IMG/VR virus record: IMGVR_UViG_2693429779_000010
Length of the DNA: 46,997 bases
Source of the DNA: a virus
Lineage: Duplodnaviria > Heunggongvirae > Uroviricota > Caudoviricetes
Strand: one strand, 5' to 3'
Shown here piece after piece: positions 3,584 through 39,076 of the stretch (its first letter is position 1; each line of letters begins with the position of its first letter). The position numbers were made by a program, and so were the translations under genes. The notes beneath the pieces are model-generated. The model ran no database searches and had not been told where the DNA came from. It saw only the letters and a list, made by a program, of their open reading frames with translations.

Positions 3584-3747
3584 TCACGGTTGTGTGCTTT
3601 GAGCACATAGAAGACTTTGTGGCGGATATTGCCGCCATTTTTAACTGGTCGCCCGCCGAAATCTTCATGATGACGCCCGGCGAAGTGGTTAGCTGGCGTG
3701 AGCGGGCGGCACTTCGCAGCGGGAATGCAGACAATGAAGACTCTTGA
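3218..3747 (+). CDS. E': E+E' tail chaperone made by programmed -1 frameshift at 3529-3535
   Basis: The -1 frame is open from the slippery site to 3747 and overlaps the start of T, the conserved P2 E/E' (lambda G/GT-like) arrangement. Confidence 0.65.
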
Positions 3748-6541
3748 TATCCGGGTCGCTTTCAGCGCCGTTGACAGGCTGACCCGGCCTGCCGAAAACG
3801 CCCGCCGCCTGATGGGGCAGTTTGGTGACTCCATCCAGCGAACGCAGGGGGCGATCAAAAATCTCGAGCGTCAGGCGCGTTCATTTGAGCGCGCCCGTGA
3901 CGCTGTCAGTAAAGCGGATGCGGGCATCGTGAAAGCACGACGCCAGCTTAACGCCCTTAATCAGTTACAACGCACGGGTACAGTGCTCAGCGAAAAACAA
4001 CAAAAGCTGATGCAGCAGTTAAGCACCCGGCTTGAACGCCTGAATGAATCGCGCACACGGGAAATTCAGAAAATGCGGGAACTTGGCGGAGAGCTGAAAC
4101 GCCACGGCATTTCCCTGACAGGCAGCGATAACACCATCCAGCAGGCCATCAGACGCACCGGACAATACAACAACCAGCTTGAACGCGAACGGCGGGCGCT
4201 TGCGCGTGTAACGCAGGCGCGTGAGCGGTATTCACGCGCGCAGGAAACAGCGGGAAAACTGAAAACAGGTGGTGCGCTGGCAACAGGTGCGGCGGCAGCG
4301 GGCGGCTATGCTGCCGGGCGTTTTTTGCAGCCCGCTATCGGGTTCGGGAAAGAGATGTCCCGTGTTCAGGCACTGACGCGAATCGATAAAAACAGCCCGC
4401 AGTTTAAGGCGCTGCGTGAGCAGGCGTTAAAACTTGGCTCTGAAACGCAGTTCACCGCAGGCGATGCCGCCAGTGGACAGGCATTTCTTGCAATGGCTGG
4501 TTTCACACCGCAGGCCATTCAGGCTGCGCTTCCCGGCGTGCTGAGCATGGCAACGGCTGGCGGTATGGACCTCGGCGAGACGGCGGATATTGGTTCCAAT
4601 ATCCTGACGCAGTTCGGCCTCTCTGCTGACCAGATGGACCGGGTCGGTGACACACTTACCGCAGCGTTTACCCGTACCAACACTGACCTTCGCGCACTGG
4701 GCGAAACCATGAAATATGCAGGTCCGGTGGCGGGTAAGCTGGGAATATCGCTGGAGCAGGCCGCAGCGATGGCGGGCGTGCTGGCGAAGATGGGTATCAG
4801 GGGGAGTGATGCAGGTACAGCGTTGCGTAAAAGCCTGGCCAATCTGTCATCACCGCCAAAGGCAGCGGCAGAAGCACTGAAAGAGCTGGGGGTGTCAGTT
4901 GCTGACGCCAAAGGCAAAATGCGCCCGATGGAGAATGTGCTGGCCGATCTCTATAAAGCCACCCGCAAATACGGGGAGGTTGACCGGGTATCGTTCTTTA
5001 AGGACATTGCCGGAGAAGAGGCTTTCACATCATTTATGGGCCTCGTTGATGCGGCAGGTGACGGCTTCTTAGCCAAACTGAGAAAAGAACTTGAAGGCGC
5101 GCGCGGTGAGGCAGAACGCACGGCAAAGGTTATGGCCAATAACCTTGATGGCAACCTGAAATCACTCGGCAGTGCATGGGAAGGTCTGCGTATTCGCATC
5201 AGTGATCTGGTTGACGGTCCGCTGCGTTCTGTCACGCAGTGGCTCACGCGGGTTGTCTCAAAGGTGACGGCGCTGGCGCAGGCCCACCCGGCACTGACGC
5301 GCCAGTTACTGATAGCGGGAGGCGCACTGCTGGCGACAACAGCAACGGTTGGTTCGTTGTCTCTGGTTATTGGGGTGCTTCACGGGAAGCTGGCTACGTT
5401 GCGTCTCGGTTTTTCTCTCCTGACCGAATCAATGAATGTTGTCAGGGTTCTGCCTGCATTATGGGGAATGGTGACGGGTTCCGTTTCTTTACTTGGTGGC
5501 GCTATCGGGGCGCTGTTCAGTCCGGTTAGTCTTATCGTGGCTGCGCTTGCCGGAGCTGCCGTTCTTATCTGGAAATACTGGGATCCCATCAGGGCATTTT
5601 TTGCCGGGGTGTTCAGCGGGATTATGGAAAGGCTGACCCCGTTGCGCGAAACCTTTGAACGGTTTGGCCCTGTTTTTGATGTCGTGCGCGATGGGATTAT
5701 TCAGGTCTTTAACTGGTTTAAATCGCTGCTGTCACCGATGGAGTCCAGCAAGGAAACGCTGGATAAATGTGCCAGTGCTGGCGAGATATTCGGTAACGTT
5801 CTTGGCGGTGCGTTACAACTTGTTCTGACACCTGCAAAAATGCTACTGGATACGCTGGCGTGGATACTTGAAAAACTTGGCGTCCTTCCGGATGAAGCGG
5901 AAAGGGCGCGCAAGAAAATCGAAGACGCACAGCGTGCGGCCATTCTTCAGGACAAGGTTGCCTTGCTTCAGGGGGACCTGGCGAAAATCAATCCGCCGAA
6001 GCCTGTGGAAAATGGCAATGGCACCGGAGGTGATAAACCCAAAGACAACAAACCGCTCACAGACAGCAATACCGGGACGCTACGCAGACTCAGCAAAATT
6101 GCTGATAACACAGGTAAGCTGGTTGATGAGACGAAAAAACGCATTGGCCCCGGCGATATTGTCTTTAAGAACCTGCCCCGCGCACTTGCTGTTCGTGGGG
6201 AGTGGCAGGAGCGGAAGATTGCGCAGGTCAGTAAGCCTGCCCCCGCAATTAATATCACACCCGTGGTCCCGGCTCCGCTGCCTCCGGCGCTGGTCCCTGT
6301 TGTTGCGGCCAGCTCCCGCCCGGTGGCGGAGGCCATACGCTCTCCAGTGGCATCAGTTCCTGTAACTTCCCGTAACCGGGAGCCTGTTGCCTCCGGATTT
6401 GGTGGTGAAATTCATGTTCATCTGCATAACGTTGTTACGCAGAATCCCCGCGAACTGGCGAAACTGGTCGGTGAAATGGTCAGGGCAGAAATGGAACGGC
6501 GCGCCCGTGCCGGGCGTGGCAGTTTTTACGATAAAGATTGA
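3734..6541 (+). CDS. T: Tail tape measure protein (P2 gpT homolog)
   Basis: Long ORF (track 3698-6541, GTG at 3698; ATG 3734 preferred because GGGAA lies ~9 nt upstream). Coiled-coil N-terminus, Gly/Ala-rich hydrophobic centre, located after E/E'. Confidence 0.85.
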   Translation: MKTLDIRVAFSAVDRLTRPAENARRLMGQFGDSIQRTQGAIKNLERQARSFERARDAVSKADAGIVKARRQLNALNQLQRTGTVLSEKQQKLMQQLSTRLERLNESRTREIQKMRELGGELKRHGISLTGSDNTIQQAIRRTGQYNNQLERERRALARVTQARERYSRAQETAGKLKTGGALATGAAAAGGYAAGRFLQPAIGFGKEMSRVQALTRIDKNSPQFKALREQALKLGSETQFTAGDAASGQAFLAMAGFTPQAIQAALPGVLSMATAGGMDLGETADIGSNILTQFGLSADQMDRVGDTLTAAFTRTNTDLRALGETMKYAGPVAGKLGISLEQAAAMAGVLAKMGIRGSDAGTALRKSLANLSSPPKAAAEALKELGVSVADAKGKMRPMENVLADLYKATRKYGEVDRVSFFKDIAGEEAFTSFMGLVDAAGDGFLAKLRKELEGARGEAERTAKVMANNLDGNLKSLGSAWEGLRIRISDLVDGPLRSVTQWLTRVVSKVTALAQAHPALTRQLLIAGGALLATTATVGSLSLVIGVLHGKLATLRLGFSLLTESMNVVRVLPALWGMVTGSVSLLGGAIGALFSPVSLIVAALAGAAVLIWKYWDPIRAFFAGVFSGIMERLTPLRETFERFGPVFDVVRDGIIQVFNWFKSLLSPMESSKETLDKCASAGEIFGNVLGGALQLVLTPAKMLLDTLAWILEKLGVLPDEAERARKKIEDAQRAAILQDKVALLQGDLAKINPPKPVENGNGTGGDKPKDNKPLTDSNTGTLRRLSKIADNTGKLVDETKKRIGPGDIVFKNLPRALAVRGEWQERKIAQVSKPAPAINITPVVPAPLPPALVPVVAASSRPVAEAIRSPVASVPVTSRNREPVASGFGGEIHVHLHNVVTQNPRELAKLVGEMVRAEMERRARAGRGSFYDKD

Positions 6542-15939: not shown

Positions 15940-16927
15940 TTATACCTGCGATACGTTATACCATGTTCCGTTAATTAACTTTTGTATTGGTCTGAATACT
16001 GCCGGATCATCACCATCGACTTCACCGATAATACCAAGCCCCGTGATTACATGGCCTGATTTTTCATACATCACGCCTTTCTTCATGGTCTAAACAACTC
16101 GTGTGCCAAGTCTGACATCTCTCACATAGCGGGAATCAAAGTTACCGTAATCCGAGGGATTAACACGTCCCGTAATATTTATGGTTTTATTACTTTGAAT
16201 GCTTCCGGAGACAAAGCGCATAACATGGACGTTATTAGCATAAACATCCAGATTACCATCGCCTTTTTGTTTAAAGCCCGTGTCATTATCACCCAATACA
16301 ATCGAATTACCGCCAAGAGCACTGGATGTTCCGATACCCAGTGCACCATTCAGTTGACCACCAGATAACGGCAGTGCACCAACATCTCCTGCTGAAGGTT
16401 TTCTGGTGGTGTAAAATTCGGACCAGTCGGCTTCAAAACCATAACCATCACGGGCTGAACGATAAAAAATACCGCCATTTTTATAATTAATCCGAAACTG
16501 AGCTGCAGGACAACTTCCTTCTCCCATATAAAAATGAATAATTAACGTTGATGCACCACTAATAGTTGCGTTATAGGCTCCGCTACTCCAGTTCCATCCA
16601 ACTGCTTTATCATTCGCAACGGTGCTTCCTGTTTTCCCTAAGGCAAACGCACCAACATGACTTGCTTTTAATGTGATATCGGAGGAACCATCAAAAGCCA
16701 CATTGCTTATTTTCCTGGCAGTTTTTAATTTTGCAGCTGTAGAAGCATTGCCGGATAGTTCACCAGAAAGGCCACCGCTGAATGTTTGTCGATTAGTCCA
16801 GGTATTCGCTGTACTGAGTAACGGTATTTTCTCCCCGCTTGTGCCGAGTTCTCGTAAACCGAGGTATTCGATAACGGCAGCAACGGTCGATTTCGCAAGA
16901 ATATCCCGCCCGACTTTTGTCAGGGTA
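15940..16927 (-). pseudogene. Tail-fibre 3' portion D (end of constant region, pix-like site, variable domain) with in-frame amber stop; 5' end cut by IS600 copy 3
   Basis: ...TLTKVGRDILAKSTVAAVIEYLGL...DVRLGTRVV-TAG-TMKKGVMYEKSGHVITGL...[11 protein letters not shown]; the TAG at 16090-16092 sits where recalled P2 H has Gln. Confidence 0.7.
16849..16874 (-). other. Degenerate pix-like site inside fibre fragment D (inverted orientation)
   Basis: TTCTCGTAAACC-GA-GGTATTCGATAA; 4 mismatches to the reverse complement of pix-1; encodes VIEYLGL. Confidence 0.55.
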
Positions 16928-32343: not shown

Positions 32344-33389
32344 TGAGCAGAAAAAATAAAAAAGTGCGCATGAGTTCACGCATTGATCTCGCTGATGCGC
32401 TCAGGAAAGAATCGTCGCTCAGTGCATTCACATTTGATGGTCCTTACCGCCTGACCGGGCATGACCTGCTGGACAATATGTACTGTGCTGATAACGGGCG
32501 GTGGTATGAAACCCCGGTGGACTGGTACGGTCTGGCAAGAGCTGCCCGGCAAACGTCCTGGCATCAGTCTGCGCTTTACTTTAAGCGCAATGTATTGCTC
32601 GGCTGCTATATTCCGCACCCGCTGCTTTCCCGGCAGGATTTCTCGGCGCTGGCGCTGGACTGGTTTGTGTTCGGTAACGCATTCCTTGAGCTTCGGAGCA
32701 ATATGCTCGGCGAACCGCTTAAATTACGGCACGCCCTGGCGAAATACATGCGACGCGGAAGCGATCTTGAATCATGGTGGTATGTGCAGGATGGCAAGGA
32801 TGCGTTTCAGTTTCGTCCTGGCAAAGTGTGCCACCTGATGAATCCGGATATTAACCAGGAAATCTACGGCATGCCGGAATATCTTGGCGCATTACTCTCG
32901 GCCAGCCTTTCTCATTCGGCGGACATGTTCAGAAAACTGTACTACGACAACGGATCCCACGCCGGGTGCATCATCTACATCGGTGCAGCGCAGGTAAACC
33001 GCGAAAGCATGGACTCCCTGAAAGAAACGCTACAGGGGGCACGTGGTGGTGGTGCGTTTAAAAACGTGCTCATTCATGCGCCCAACGGGGGCAAAGAGGG
33101 GGTGCAAATTTTGCCGTTCCAGCAGATCACCGCAAAGGATGAGTTCATGAATGTTAAGGCGGCATCCCGTGATGATGTGCTGGCTGCGCACCGCGTTCCG
33201 CCGCAACTGATGGGGGCGATGCCGGGCGAAAAAAGTGCGTTTGGTGATGTGGAGAAGGCCGCGCGGGTTTACGCAATTAACGAGCTGATGCCCGTCATGG
33301 AGGCCATGAAGCACATCAATGACTGGCTTGGCGAAGAGGTGATCCGCTTTAACCCTTACGCACTGTTAGACACCCAGCCCACATCCTGA
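32343..33389 (+). CDS. Q: Portal protein (P2 gpQ homolog)
   Basis: 348 aa; start overlaps P stop. Confidence 0.85.
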   Translation: MSRKNKKVRMSSRIDLADALRKESSLSAFTFDGPYRLTGHDLLDNMYCADNGRWYETPVDWYGLARAARQTSWHQSALYFKRNVLLGCYIPHPLLSRQDFSALALDWFVFGNAFLELRSNMLGEPLKLRHALAKYMRRGSDLESWWYVQDGKDAFQFRPGKVCHLMNPDINQEIYGMPEYLGALLSASLSHSADMFRKLYYDNGSHAGCIIYIGAAQVNRESMDSLKETLQGARGGGAFKNVLIHAPNGGKEGVQILPFQQITAKDEFMNVKAASRDDVLAAHRVPPQLMGAMPGEKSAFGDVEKAARVYAINELMPVMEAMKHINDWLGEEVIRFNPYALLDTQPTS

Positions 33390-33860
33390 CGCGCTTCGCT
33401 TGTCTGCTGCTTCGCCGGGGCATAAAAAATTTATGCCCCGACTCTCCAGCTCCTGTATCAGTCAGATAATTTCACGACGCTTTCCTGCTGATTGCCATCA
33501 TCGACAGTCAGACTCTTACGCAATCCCACCTCGTTGACTGCATATTCTCGCCGTCTCAGTGCGATTTTGACGGCCTTACCTTTCACCCCATCAAATCAAA
33601 AGCCCTCACGTCTTTTTCACGCTCAGCGTGAGAAATACAGCCATTCTGTTGTATCTCTGCGACATCGTTCAGGGAATGCTATTTACCCCCTGAAACGCGG
33701 GCTGTTCCCCCGTCACCTGCGCGCAGAAAAAACGCGTTTTTTTGTGCATGCACGGATCCTTGACGGATCCAGCCGCCACGCGGGCCGGAAGGGCAAAAAG
33801 TCGTTCAAAAAAATTGTGCAAATTTGTGCACTATTGTGCATTTATAAAATCAACTAAAAA
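33390..33860. other. Non-coding region after the portal gene; candidate cos/packaging region
   Basis: No credible ORF; hairpin GGGGCATAAA-aaa-TTTATGCCCC (33417-33439), palindrome A6CGCGT7 (33725-33740), direct repeat CGGATCC x2, TTGTGCA x4 (three at 10-bp phasing, 33814-33840), GC-rich GCCGCCACGCGGGCCGGAAGGGC. P2 places cos next to Q. Confidence 0.35.
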
Positions 33861-34901: not shown

Positions 34902-35213
34902 TCATTCAGGAAATAATGCCCGGATATTCCCTGCTATCTGACTGGTTATCTGTGCGGTTGGTACTGGCTGTGGCACGGGGCGTTCTGTCCTGGTTTGTGT
35001 CACCGATAACGCCTCATCGTCAGCCCATGCAGCCAGTCGGTAAGCCTCTGCTGGATTCATTTTCAGAAGTGCCAGCCCGGCCAGAAAAGCCACGCGTTGG
35101 CCGCTTTTGCGGGCTTCTGGTGTAAGGCTGCCCAGCCAGGCGCATGCTTCGCTTTCGTTCTTGACGGCCGCAGGCTTCAGATAGAAACTTATCCGTCTGG
35201 TTGGTGTCGTCAT
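34902..35213 (-). CDS. parR: ParR/StbB-like centromere-binding protein (putative)
   Basis: Internal ATG at 35211-35213 with AAGGAG RBS, 4 nt after parM stop; MTTPTRRISFYLKP...RVAFLAGLAL... parallels recalled R1 ParR (RRTIAFKLNP...ALTAGLAL). Confidence 0.55.
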   Translation of the reverse strand: MTTPTRRISFYLKPAAVKNESEACAWLGSLTPEARKSGQRVAFLAGLALLKMNPAEAYRLAAWADDEALSVTQTRTERPVPQPVPTAQITSQIAGNIRALFPE

Positions 35214-35217
35214 TGGT

Positions 35218-36177
35218 TTACTCCTTGTCCATTGCGTACAGCCCATTAACCAGAGCAAACTGTGGCACCCCGTCCGCGATGAAAGTCGCATTAACTCCGC
35301 AGGCTTCGCGGATAGCGGGTGCCACAATCTCCGCCCCTCCACCGACAACCATCACCCGCCCGTAACCCGAAAAACCCGCCAGCGCGCGGATCACGCGTTG
35401 TTTCAGTGTTTCTTCCTTTTCACGAATAACCGCCATCAGGCTGGCGTAATGCGCGTCATTGTGGATGTGCTGGCGCAGCCAGGCTTCATCATGGCGATGT
35501 TCGATAATGGTATTGGCGATGTGGTGACTGGTGCGCATACCGTTAGTGGCCATCACCGACAGTACGGCATCGGCCATCAGAGAAACGCCTACGTGTGGAT
35601 CGCAAAACACCTGGCTGATACCTGCCAGTTGCCCCTGAACCTTTGCCACATCCAGCGTGGTTCCGCCCAAATCCACAATCAGCAGGGATTCAAACGGACT
35701 CATGTCAGCCAGTGCCTTAAAGCCAGCCGGAATGGATTCAGGCATAACCCGCACGTTACGGATAGTGAATGCTTCGCCGTTCTGGTACTCCACCGGGCGC
35801 ATAACGTTCGCTTTTTTGCGGTTGATGTTGGCCATGTCCGGCTGTGCGTTTGTGTCGAAATACTCGCTCAGTGGCAGGGGGACAACCACATCCACCTCCT
35901 GTGGCGTGATGCCTGATTTGACCAGCGCGTGATGAATGGCAATGACATTTACATCGCTGTACTGGTATTGCGTGTCGGTTGTCTGGACAAAGCGATCGCT
36001 GACCGGATCAAAACCATAGCGCACGCCATCAAGCATGTAGTTCGCGGGCTGCATGCCACCGAACGGCGCAGACCATTCCGACTTGAAGCTGTTCGGGCTG
36101 ATGGCGTTGCGGCGTTCGCCGTTCTCAGTCCATGCCAGCTTGATGTTGGTGGAGCCGTCGTCGATACAAATTTTCAT
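35218..36177 (-). CDS. parM: ParM/StbA-like actin-type ATPase
   Basis: MKICIDDGSTNIKLAW...ISPNSFK...YQYSDVNVIAIHHAL...VMPESIPAGF...LLIVDLGGTTLDV...GISQV...VMVVGGGAEIV...LVNGLYAM matches recalled R1 ParM along its full length. Confidence 0.8.
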   Translation of the reverse strand: MKICIDDGSTNIKLAWTENGERRNAISPNSFKSEWSAPFGGMQPANYMLDGVRYGFDPVSDRFVQTTDTQYQYSDVNVIAIHHALVKSGITPQEVDVVVPLPLSEYFDTNAQPDMANINRKKANVMRPVEYQNGEAFTIRNVRVMPESIPAGFKALADMSPFESLLIVDLGGTTLDVAKVQGQLAGISQVFCDPHVGVSLMADAVLSVMATNGMRTSHHIANTIIEHRHDEAWLRQHIHNDAHYASLMAVIREKEETLKQRVIRALAGFSGYGRVMVVGGGAEIVAPAIREACGVNATFIADGVPQFALVNGLYAMDKE

Positions 36178-36210
36178 GTCGCTTTTCCTTATGTTGATTA
36201 ATTAATCGTT

Positions 36211-36325
36211 TACGGGATTCTGAAATCCCGTTTTTGCCTGTTTTGTGCGCGCTTCATATATCGCTGCGCGTTTTTTGCTCATTTACGGGATTCGTGAGTC
36301 CCGTTTCTGTCTGTTTTTTGTTTCC
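36211..36325. repeat. Two ~40-bp direct repeats (70-bp period), each with a dyad ACGGGAnTC...TCCCGT and a T-run; candidate parC-like site or regulatory hairpins
   Basis: 36211-36249 TTTACGGGATTCTGAAATCCCGTTTTTGCCTGTTTTGTG and 36281-36325 ATTTACGGGATTCGTGAGTCCCGTTTCTGTCTGTTTTTTGTTTCC; first is between A stop and parM start, second is inside the last codons of A. Confidence 0.6.
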
Positions 36326-39076
36326 ACTGGTCAGGCCACCCCGCAGCAGGTCTGCTTTGCGGCGGGCGCGTTCAGTGGTTTCACTGATTCTCTGTGCGTG
36401 CTCTGCGTCGCGGATGGCGCGCAGCATGTCAGAAAGCACGGTAACGGGTGTTTTCATGGTGTTCTGGTCCTGCTGAAGTGTGGATGCCAGGCGTGCGGCG
36501 GCTTCAGGGTCTGATGCCCCCAGCTGTGTCAGATAGCTGGCGACCGGGTTATGGCGGATCTCCGTGCTGCTTACGCCATGATTACGGCTCAGGCGCTGCC
36601 AGAGCTGCGTGATTCGGCTGTCCGGGCGGGTATCCGGTTTGCGTACAATTTCAAATCCCTGCGGTGCAATGATGCTGCCGTCAACGTACAGACTGCCGCC
36701 CCGTAACAGGTGCTGCATCTGTTGTTCACCGATATGCAGGCCGAGAGATTCAGCAGACTCCCGCCATTCTTTAGCGAGTAATTCGTGGTTATCAGGCAAA
36801 GGCCGCTGCTGTTTGCGGCTCTGTGTCCAGCTCTGCATTTCATCACTGCTGTTTTTTGCCTGTTTGTCACGAAGCGAACGCATCAGCGCCCGGCGTTCGT
36901 GCCGTTTCAGTGAGCGCATCCATTCATCCACATCAACGCCGTCAGGGAGCTGCGGCCACGGTGCTGGCCGTTCTTCCGGCTGTTCTGTCCCGTTGTTGTC
37001 CGTTTCCTGTACACGGGGACAGTTATTGCCACGAGTCCAAGGGGCGGCAGGGCCGCCCTGAAGGTCAAAACCATTTTCGCGGGCGCTGTCTTCCGCTTCC
37101 GGTTTGCGTCTTACCAGCTTCCAGTTATCCGGATGCGTGCACACACGGGAGGATTCCCCGATGAGTGGTGACCAGATCCCGTAAATCTGTACGCTCTGTT
37201 CGCCGTAATCGTTCAGCTCATCGGCGAGGTCGTAGGCGGTGCGAATCAGGTAGTCTTTGCGTGGAACAAGTACGCCGCCCTGTTTCTCTATGTAGGTGGC
37301 AAAACATCCGGCATCAGCGGCGGCAAGAACCGCATCCATTGCGTCATCCTTCAGCCGTTGCGGGCCTTCCGGGTTGCGTGCCATCTGGCTGGCAAGGCGG
37401 CGCAGTTCACGCCATACCTGGCGGGAGGGGATGCCAAAGAACTGGAACTGGCGGACCCGGTGAAGGCGCGCCCAGCCGATGGCGCGTTCCACGCTCTCGG
37501 CCATTGATTTTCCGGTTTCGTGGTCAACGCGTGGCTTGCCCGTTTTCGGGTCGATGCCATCCACGGCGCGGCTGTCCAGGTTTTTCCCGATGTAGGTGGC
37601 GATGTAGCTGGTTGGCGTGCCTTTTGAGCCGTCTACATACTCCGCCTTAAAGCGCGGAGTTATGTCATCGCCCAGCTCGTGACGATCTTCCTGAATGGCA
37701 ATATCGCGGGTGTGGGACACAATGGTGTCGATTTCTTCCGGATGAGCAAAGACCATCATATGCCAGTGCACGGTGCCGTCATGGTGAGGCTCCGCCGTGC
37801 GGATGCCATACCAGCGCAGGCCGTCGCGGTTCAGTTTTTTGCGGACCGTCGCAAAAAACGTGTTAACCAGGTAATCGCTGGAGTCGCGCATTGTGGCCCC
37901 GTTCCATTTGGGATTCGGATGACCGTTCTCCGTTGTGGCGTGGTATTTTGACGGGCAGGTGACAGTCAGAAACACCGCTTTGTCGCCACGGGCTTCGGCC
38001 AGAAGTTCCAGCCCCTTCATGGTGGCCATCATTTCTGCCTTACGGTGAACCGGGTTACTTACTCCCGCGTAATACACCGTCTCGAGATCAATCGTGAACC
38101 CGTCTTCATTTTCCAGCATGAAACTTTTCAGGAAATCGCGTGTTTTCTCGCGCTGTGCGCGAAACTCGCTTAACGCGTCCTGGCTCAGATAGGGCGATGT
38201 TTTTCTGGAAACCAGACAGGCGGCGCGAAGTTGTTCTTCTCTCCACTCGCAACGTAACAGCCACAGTTTGCGTTTCCACCATTCCGCACAGGTCAGGCGA
38301 AGGATTGCGCCCGGCAGCAGTTCTGTGTCCGGTTCGTGCCTCCGGTCTTTGTCTGTTGTCAGTGCGTCATAATGCGGAGGCATGGCGTGTAAGTGTAACG
38401 CCATGCGGGCCAGCATCTGATACGCCTTCAGCGTTACATCCATGGTCAGCTCGCCATCAGTCGCGCCAAAACCATCGCAGAGTTTTTCGAAGGTGCTGCT
38501 GAACATCGCCGCCGTCATGGTGGCCAGCGTCTGTATCTGGTGTTTGTTGAGTTGCGGCAGGTAAAGCAAATCGTCCAGGCGTTCACGTCCGGCAAGGGAG
38601 CGATAACCCGGTGTCAGCCAGTGTCCGTCAGTGCGATCCAGACGTTCGAATATTTTGCGCAGGGTTCCGCGTGCATAGCGTTCCGCCTGCCAGCTCTTTT
38701 TGCCTTTCCGGCGATCGGCTTCCTGTTTTTTGCGCAGGAAGGAGAGGTGGCGAATAAGCGGATCGCGCAGATAGGACGGCAGCAGGCGCAGCGAGGCCAT
38801 GGCTTCATCCACCGCGCCGCGTGCCTGTTTTCTGGCGTCTCCTGCCAGTGTGATGGTTTTGTCCTGTTTTTCCTGTGCGTCCAGGCTTTTATTAATCAGG
38901 TTGCCCAGTGGCGTGGCGGAGAACGCCGCATCAGCCATTTCCTGGCGGCGCTCGTTCTCTGCCCGGTGGGCATCCAGCCAGGAGGAAAGCGCGGATTCAG
39001 GAGCGGGGATCCCCGTTCCTTCACGCCCCACTGCGTGGCGCGGTTGTTGCCAGTCCCTGATGTACTCTGCCGTCAT
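36254..39076 (-). CDS. A: Replication initiation protein (P2 gpA-type rolling-circle endonuclease)
   Basis: 940-aa ORF with HUH-like motif TVHWHMMVF and nearby Tyr-rich region; located between early genes and the variable locus as in P2; longer than recalled P2 A (761 aa). Confidence 0.85.
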   Translation of the reverse strand: MTAEYIRDWQQPRHAVGREGTGIPAPESALSSWLDAHRAENERRQEMADAAFSATPLGNLINKSLDAQEKQDKTITLAGDARKQARGAVDEAMASLRLLPSYLRDPLIRHLSFLRKKQEADRRKGKKSWQAERYARGTLRKIFERLDRTDGHWLTPGYRSLAGRERLDDLLYLPQLNKHQIQTLATMTAAMFSSTFEKLCDGFGATDGELTMDVTLKAYQMLARMALHLHAMPPHYDALTTDKDRRHEPDTELLPGAILRLTCAEWWKRKLWLLRCEWREEQLRAACLVSRKTSPYLSQDALSEFRAQREKTRDFLKSFMLENEDGFTIDLETVYYAGVSNPVHRKAEMMATMKGLELLAEARGDKAVFLTVTCPSKYHATTENGHPNPKWNGATMRDSSDYLVNTFFATVRKKLNRDGLRWYGIRTAEPHHDGTVHWHMMVFAHPEEIDTIVSHTRDIAIQEDRHELGDDITPRFKAEYVDGSKGTPTSYIATYIGKNLDSRAVDGIDPKTGKPRVDHETGKSMAESVERAIGWARLHRVRQFQFFGIPSRQVWRELRRLASQMARNPEGPQRLKDDAMDAVLAAADAGCFATYIEKQGGVLVPRKDYLIRTAYDLADELNDYGEQSVQIYGIWSPLIGESSRVCTHPDNWKLVRRKPEAEDSARENGFDLQGGPAAPWTRGNNCPRVQETDNNGTEQPEERPAPWPQLPDGVDVDEWMRSLKRHERRALMRSLRDKQAKNSSDEMQSWTQSRKQQRPLPDNHELLAKEWRESAESLGLHIGEQQMQHLLRGGSLYVDGSIIAPQGFEIVRKPDTRPDSRITQLWQRLSRNHGVSSTEIRHNPVASYLTQLGASDPEAAARLASTLQQDQNTMKTPVTVLSDMLRAIRDAEHAQRISETTERARRKADLLRGGLTSGNKKQTETGLTNPVNEQKTRSDI

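Follow-up and report, generated by a model that had tools for sequence, protein, structure and literature searches.

Two copies of a palindrome-bearing repeat lie between a replication gene and a partition gene of an integrating phage, which raises the question whether they serve genome partition, transcription termination, control of the mRNA or replication. The stretch of DNA analyzed here (the window, 46,997 nucleotides) is a P88-like prophage (Xuanwuvirus, Peduoviridae, P2 family), and over the 2 kb around the repeats phage P88 and thirteen related phage records match it at 96.7-98.9% identity. Gene A comes first on the minus strand, followed by the repeats, parM and parR. Gene A (36254..39076, minus strand) encodes a P2-type replication endonuclease of 940 aa (PF05840, 6.6e-131) with 30% identity to P2 A. 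The parM gene (35218..36177, minus strand, ATG at 36177) encodes an actin-like partition ATPase of 319 aa (PF06406, 4.9e-81; PF21523, 1.3e-68), which is about 50% identical to R1 ParM (PDB 1mwk; E-value 5.9e-92); among plasmid ParM genes the highest identity to it is about 52%. The product of parR (34902..35213, minus strand; 103 aa; PF10784, 5e-23) is a ribbon-helix-helix centromere-binding adaptor whose family profile finds pB171 ParR (StbB, PDB 2jd3) at an E-value of 8e-10, with the match falling in the N-terminal ribbon-helix-helix region.

The two 42-bp units are probably the cis-acting, parC-type centromere of a type II ParMRC cassette carried by this prophage, and the candidate centromere is possibly also an operator. 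A centromere or operator of the parC type had been suggested for this site in the first-pass annotation, and it has become the best-supported reading through position, co-inheritance with parMR, conservation independent of reading frame, helical phasing and analogy to plasmid systems. The argument is built on sequence comparison, from which ParR binding, the geometry of the segrosome, an effect on regulation and the timing of the system within the phage life cycle are inferred.

Layout of the repeats between gene A and parM

A single direct-repeat family (D1) was found near parM. It comprises two 42-nt copies that are 81% identical, which confirms the two palindrome-bearing repeats of the first-pass annotation; their start-to-start distance was measured at 73 bp and not at 70 bp as given there. 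Read in the sense of parM (minus strand), the whole candidate parC-like element of 115 bp (36206..36320) consists of unit 2 (36279..36320), a spacer of 31 bp (36248..36278) and unit 1 (36206..36247). The stop codon of gene A (36254-36256, minus strand) is located inside the spacer, so that unit 1 is intergenic and unit 2 falls within the last 22 codons of A, whose C-terminal tail ...KKQTETGLTNPVNEQKTRSDI is encoded across it. In the promoter scans no convincing promoter was seen in the spacer. The element ends 29 nt from the ATG of parM, and the leader in between (36178..36205, minus strand) contains a Shine-Dalgarno sequence AAGGA (36190-36186), a weak -10-like ATTAAT (36202-36197) and the block CATAAGGA. 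The parR gene follows parM, and a search of the window for a third motif copy beyond parR, at the position of parC2 in pB171, found none.

Each unit contains a palindrome of 20 nt with the general form ACGGGATT-N4-AATCCCGT, which gives a stem of 8 pairs and a loop of 4 nt. Palindrome 1 (ACGGGATT-TCAG-AATCCCGT; 36212..36231, ACGGGATTCTGAAATCCCGT) carries a -35-like TTCAGA in its loop. Palindrome 2 (ACGGGAyTC-N2-GrrTCCCGT; 36285..36304, ACGGGATTCGTGAGTCCCGT) has one G.T pair on the plus strand. A search of both strands of the 47 kb for the palindrome pattern with up to three mismatches returned only these two sites and one match with three mismatches at 16154. Dinucleotide-shuffled sequences averaged 0.33 matches, with five matches reached by none of the 100. 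The additional match (16154-16173, plus strand, GAGGGATTAACACGTCCCGT) is most likely due to chance. Outside the P88-like lineage, DNA similarity to the element was found neither in phages nor in plasmids, and a literature search on a partition site of P88 or Xuanwuvirus returned no paper in the library searched.

Two features of the neighboring genes were noted in passing. At 36456 gene A of the window contains an ATG in frame (acc ATG aaa aca), which could mark a once-separate ORF that is now fused to A. Two plus-strand ORFs run antisense to parM, at 35398-35916 and at 35929-36201 (the latter ending just 5' of hairpin 1), and were judged spurious, since the parM frame on the opposite strand has overwhelming family support.

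T-rich runs come after both palindromes on the plus strand, where the two score as terminator-like; on the minus strand, which is that of the mRNA, the palindromes are followed by AAATGA and AAACGA, with no U-run. The resemblance to tandem terminators described in the first-pass annotation is thus real as far as the hairpins and the T-rich runs on the plus strand are concerned. Tandem intrinsic terminators of plus-strand (antisense) transcription would keep transcripts that start at antisense promoters, or that run on past the convergent late terminase/portal operon, from entering gene A. Between 33500 and 39500 the palindromes are the two best terminator-like sites of the plus strand, with GC-containing stems (four GC pairs among the eight), T-rich tails and hairpins that fold at about -10 kcal/mol, as is known from rho-independent terminators. 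However, there is no gene for them to end: the late operon stops at 33389, 2.8 kb away, and candidate hairpins follow it directly, although a strong terminator immediately after the portal gene was not detected. In the relatives, moreover, the T-run of hairpin 1 is degraded to CTTTTGCC or CTTTCGCC in 20-40% of the unique sequences, and the frequent variant ATCCTGT introduces an A.C mismatch into the plus-strand stem; the tail of hairpin 2 is only UUCUGUCU. Termination would also leave unexplained why the repeats are strictly linked to parMR and why helical phasing extends over 115 bp. Therefore, a terminator role is disfavored and appears quite improbable to us.

The palindromes that follow the portal stop at 33389 are located at 33417-33439 (GGGGCATAAAAAATTTATGCCCC, no T-run) and 33727-33743 (AAAAAACGCGTTTTTTT). 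They are possible late-operon terminators or elements close to cos.

Linkage to parMR and conservation of the palindromic core

The repeats belong to the parMR module and not to gene A, as judged from their distribution and position in related sequences. A motif scan of viral contigs yielded 118 new loci, 110 of which have parM directly downstream; four end before parM, and the other four are unrelated single chance matches. Among complete E. coli genomes, 1302 carry the element (1441 places) and 1303 carry parM (1443 places). Unchanged repeats in P2-like phages devoid of parMR, which the first-pass annotation had named as the observation that would speak against a partition site, were not observed, and all phage records with the repeats (14/14) also carry parMR.

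Further evidence comes from loci in which the end of gene A differs. In one viral contig (L051) gene A is 89% identical over 852 residues and ends at 871 aa, shorter than A of the window. There, a separate ORF of 155 aa runs into repeat 2 and has the tail ...KQTKTGFTNPVNEQKTRSDI, the same tail and stop codon as in A of the window. In Hafnia loci such as L098 (ParM 94% identical) A reads palindrome 2 in another frame and stops at a TGA in its loop (...KQKRDS, then stop), and both palindromes are kept, as is their register relative to parM. Since repeat 2 is found in two frames and in two ORFs, protein coding does not explain the conservation of unit 2. The statement of the first-pass annotation that the second repeat encodes the last residues of A is therefore correct, but a meaningful coding constraint on it is not supported.

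The separate ORF of L051 lies between A and parM (L051:3457-3924, IMG/VR contig IMGVR_UViG_2547132279_000014), is Cys-rich (CRQCG...CCRCRG) and has a 20-residue tail in common with A of the window.

The same loci bear on the idea that the repeats are part of a P2-type replication origin or another replication element linked to gene A. The P2 origin lies inside gene A, as does repeat 2. However, the annotated P2 nick site GCCGCGCC/TCGGAGTCCTGTCAATAACTGTGG (codon ~619/761) aligns to residues ~672-686 of A, which correspond to ~37010-37050 of the window (GCCGCCCCTTGGACTCGTGGCAATAACTGTCC, minus strand), where similarity to P2 can also be recognized in the DNA, and this places the origin about 750 bp from the repeats. 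Where the end of gene A is replaced, the repeats follow parMR. Moreover, Klebsiella and Salmonella P2-like phages share a DNA island at 36999-37060 with the window and are without the repeats. An origin function of the repeats is therefore extremely improbable. The island itself is the only one in common with these phages (85-90% identity), and it holds the predicted nick site of the origin inside gene A.

With the repeats thus assigned to parMR, we compared their divergence with that of the surrounding genes. Between E. coli and Hafnia the 153-nt region upstream of parM is 78% identical, and the repeat units are 81-86% identical by our own count on the alignment (unit 1, 86%). By comparison, the neighboring 600 nt of gene A reach 60%, and 4-fold sites reach 64% in parM and 55% in parR. 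A binomial estimate for 78% versus 64% over 153 sites gives z ~3.5. Over the distance from E. coli to Hafnia the repeats have hence changed less than synonymous sites. Inside the clade of close E. coli relatives an excess of conservation was not detected for unit 1 (pi 0.084 versus 0.066 at the 4-fold sites of parM), and unit 2 has a pi of 0.034. Due to the shallow depth of this clade nothing can be concluded on selection there, and it is the Hafnia comparison that is informative.

Conservation is unevenly distributed within the palindromes. The core GGGAT...ATCCC is invariant in the relatives, and positions of the loop and the outer stem vary; in the Hafnia, Salmonella and Cronobacter loci the outer stem pairs are lost and GGGAT/ATCCC is unchanged. 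The one-sided changes often seen in palindrome 1 leave G.U pairs on the minus strand; those common in palindrome 2 leave G.U on the plus strand and hence A.C on the mRNA, as in the window itself. Besides, several relatives have plain mismatches in the stems. In a set of about 60 unique sequences, no stem pair had changed on both sides in a compensatory way. As the direction of wobble conflicts between the two copies, no single strand accounts for both palindromes.

This pattern is relevant to a further possibility, namely that the palindromes form RNA hairpins in the early-operon mRNA (minus strand) and act between A and parM as a stabilizer or processing site or in translational control. As minus-strand RNA both palindromes do fold (-9 to -11 kcal/mol, z -2.4 to -3.2), the common substitutions of hairpin 1 keep G.U pairs on that strand, and conservation independent of frame together with linkage to parM would fit an mRNA element equally well. 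The A.C mismatches of hairpin 2, the loss of outer pairs around a fixed core and the lack of compensatory changes all stand against a conserved RNA helix. Moreover, an Rfam search of the element returned no family at E<=1, and the Shine-Dalgarno sequence of parM is not sequestered. We therefore regard an RNA hairpin function as unlikely. An invariant core with decaying edges and without covariation fits a palindrome bound by protein better than an RNA helix or a terminator.

For a centromere, the protein in question would be ParR. Its middle third is hypervariable in loci L088-L093, with 54-57% identity in three loci and 42% in L093; the latter locus has a fragmented gene A, and its ParR may be a frameshifted copy. 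The four loci with ParR variants have ParM proteins that are 98-99% identical and nearly unchanged upstream repeats. In the ParR variants the N-terminal MTTPTRRISFYLKPAAVK, which includes the presumed DNA-reading strand TRRISFYLKP, and the C-terminal NIRALFPE are invariant. The latter peptide we take to be the ParM-binding part, as in the structure of R1 ParM with a ParR peptide. That the DNA-reading strand and the repeats both stay fixed, with the rest of ParR diverging, is an indirect hint of ParR binding at the repeats. The variability of the middle part suggests recombination or diversifying selection on a linker. Two ParR variants (P0029 and P0031) are on contigs that end inside parM, and regions upstream of parM are absent from them.

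Helical phasing, promoters and comparison with known centromeres

The element stands out in the window by its helical phasing. The AA-dinucleotide periodicity at 10-11 bp is 1.76 for 36200-36330, a value reached by 0.02% of windows and 0.05% of shuffles, and the strongest periodicity of the 47-kb window (2.12) is found at 36187-36317. AAAC motifs lie on a grid of about 10.5 bp across 112 bp and include the sub-motifs AAAC(A/G)GG. By the same score R1 parC reaches 2.54, the parC of an IncL/M plasmid 2.11 and a third plasmid 1.3. The second-strongest periodicity of the window (1.56-1.70) is located at 5587-5727 on the minus strand, antisense within a 947-aa plus-strand ORF (3698-6541), and probably arises as a side effect of coding.

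A sigma70 consensus scan detected no promoter at the element. The best relaxed sigma70-like match (8/12) combines TTCAGA (36224-36219, minus strand) with ATTAAT (36202-36197) over a 16-nt spacer and lacks the A at -10 position 2. The overlap of the repeats with a minus-strand -35, as proposed in the first-pass annotation, is thus found in the loop of palindrome 1, but the promoter it would belong to is weak, whereas plasmid homologues have matches of 9-10/12. No minus-strand terminator was found between gene A and parM, so that parMR probably owes most of its expression to its place at the end of the early operon. The position of the element over the stop of gene A and the weakness of the sole promoter-like match likewise make transcripts that continue from gene A the probable main source of parMR mRNA.

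Among the known systems, R1 parC is the closest point of comparison. It comprises 159 bp with two sets of five 11-bp iterons around a promoter region of 39 bp (PMC2241845), is strongly curved and binds about one ParR dimer per iteron (PMC2241845; Dam & Gerdes 1994). This layout was recovered in an IncF plasmid. The prophage element resembles R1 parC in its position directly upstream of parM-parR, in a homologous ParM and a ParR of the same Pfam family, in two repeat blocks separated by a spacer, in an A-rich strand that is the sense strand of parM and in strong A-tract phasing at 10-11 bp. In addition, the block CATAAGGA of the prophage leader has a similar counterpart in the R1 parM leader. 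In contrast to the direct iterons of R1, the prophage has two 42-bp units with a 31-bp spacer in 115 bp, each unit with a 20-bp palindromic core, and a good promoter is absent from the spacer. Furthermore, the element overlaps the last codons and the stop of the upstream gene, and the replicon is an integrating P2-like phage.

Similar arrangements were seen in the putative parC regions of enterobacterial plasmid ParMR loci with about 50% ParM identity (IncL/M, IncF and metagenomic loci; L084-L087 and L278-L315), since all of those examined have two repeat clusters upstream of parM. In one of them (L085) a repeat copy of one cluster is 73 bp from a copy of the other cluster, as in the prophage, and two others (L086 and L087) also have inverted or palindromic copies of their own motif. 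The iteron sequence differs with the type of the ParR beta-strand. However, the plasmid loci have clear sigma70 promoters between the clusters (9-10/12 with both key bases present) and short iterons of 10-11 bp in many copies, and GGGAT...ATCCC occurs in none of them. The centromeres of pB171 and pSK41 are tandem direct repeats; that of pSK41 has 20-bp units, similar in length to the prophage palindromes, and pB171 has its second site downstream of parR. With two long palindromic-core units and no clear promoter between them, the prophage element differs from every characterized type II centromere.

Relatives intermediate between the prophage clade and the plasmid systems with about 50% ParM identity were not found. 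A scan of genome contigs gave only three near-identical loci, and a metagenome scan gave either ParM proteins of at least 87% identity with unchanged repeats or plasmid types at about 50%. In the 200 nt upstream of parM the metagenomic loci L278-L315 contain at least four iteron classes (e.g. GTTCTCAAATA, ATTTGAGA and TATTTTTCT), each of which pairs with its own N-terminal ParR strand (RRKITFYLNP, RRKIQFYINP, NRKCSFYIYP). These loci are a ready data set for a ParR recognition code.

If the element is a centromere, ribbon-helix-helix dimers of ParR would bind each unit cooperatively. A unit would then consist of the palindrome GGGATT-N4-AATCCC and flanking sub-sites similar to AAAAC(A/G)GG at intervals of roughly a helical turn. 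With phased A-tracts and a spacing of 73 bp, about seven turns, both units would lie on one face of the helix, and the DNA may wrap into a U- or ring-shaped segrosome like that of R1. The conserved C-terminal peptide NIRALFPE of ParR would cap growing ParM filaments, by which circular phage genomes would be pushed apart. As the element spans the stop of gene A at the end of the early operon, bound ParR may in addition damp read-through or a weak promoter.

Prevalence and possible use by the phage

The element is widespread in E. coli, being present in 1302 of 5426 complete RefSeq genomes (~24%), including O157:H7, with up to three copies per genome. The sole annotation beneath it in these genomes is 'replication endonuclease'; parM and parR are routinely annotated and the cis site is not. 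Nearly all of the places in E. coli (1439/1441) are chromosomal. Partition is thus not needed to keep the integrated prophage, a point that we counted against the centromere reading. One circular record of 34,461 bp (NZ_CP148288.1), deposited as a non-mobilizable 'plasmid' from E. coli, comprises an entire P88-like genome (integrase, Cox, A, parMR and the structural genes) and may represent an excised or episomal state.

A use of actin-like filaments by an integrated prophage has been described in Corynebacterium. The AlpAC/alpS system of prophage CGP3 comprises an actin-like filament protein and a DNA-binding adaptor and moves and replicates the viral DNA after induction (PMC5539076). Like the P88-like element it belongs to an integrated prophage and has repeated adaptor sites upstream of the operon (PMC5539076). 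The phage family and the host are different, however, the alpS motif TTAAnnG is short, and AlpA, its adaptor, shares no homology with AlfB, the adaptor of a plasmid system (PMC5539076). As a tentative and rather doubtful proposal, P88-like phages may carry a working actin-type segregation machine that is used after excision, with a compact palindromic-core centromere fused to the 3' end of the replication gene. By analogy to CGP3, one possible use would be to position or segregate replicating circular genomes; another would be a transient state as a low-copy plasmid. ParR bound over the stop of gene A would couple read-through of the replication gene to the dosage of the partition genes.

Should the repeats not be a centromere, the parMR cassette would be without any recognizable centromere, which would be the more surprising result. 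If they are, the P88-like phages would have a minimal type II centromere of about 115 bp with two palindromic-core units, unlike the direct-iteron arrays studied so far. Such a site would be a possible source of partition incompatibility between prophages or between a prophage and a plasmid. Moreover, it would give a handle on why an integrating phage keeps a plasmid partition system, for which AlpAC of CGP3, an actin-like system put to use by an integrated prophage once it is induced, provides a precedent (PMC5539076).
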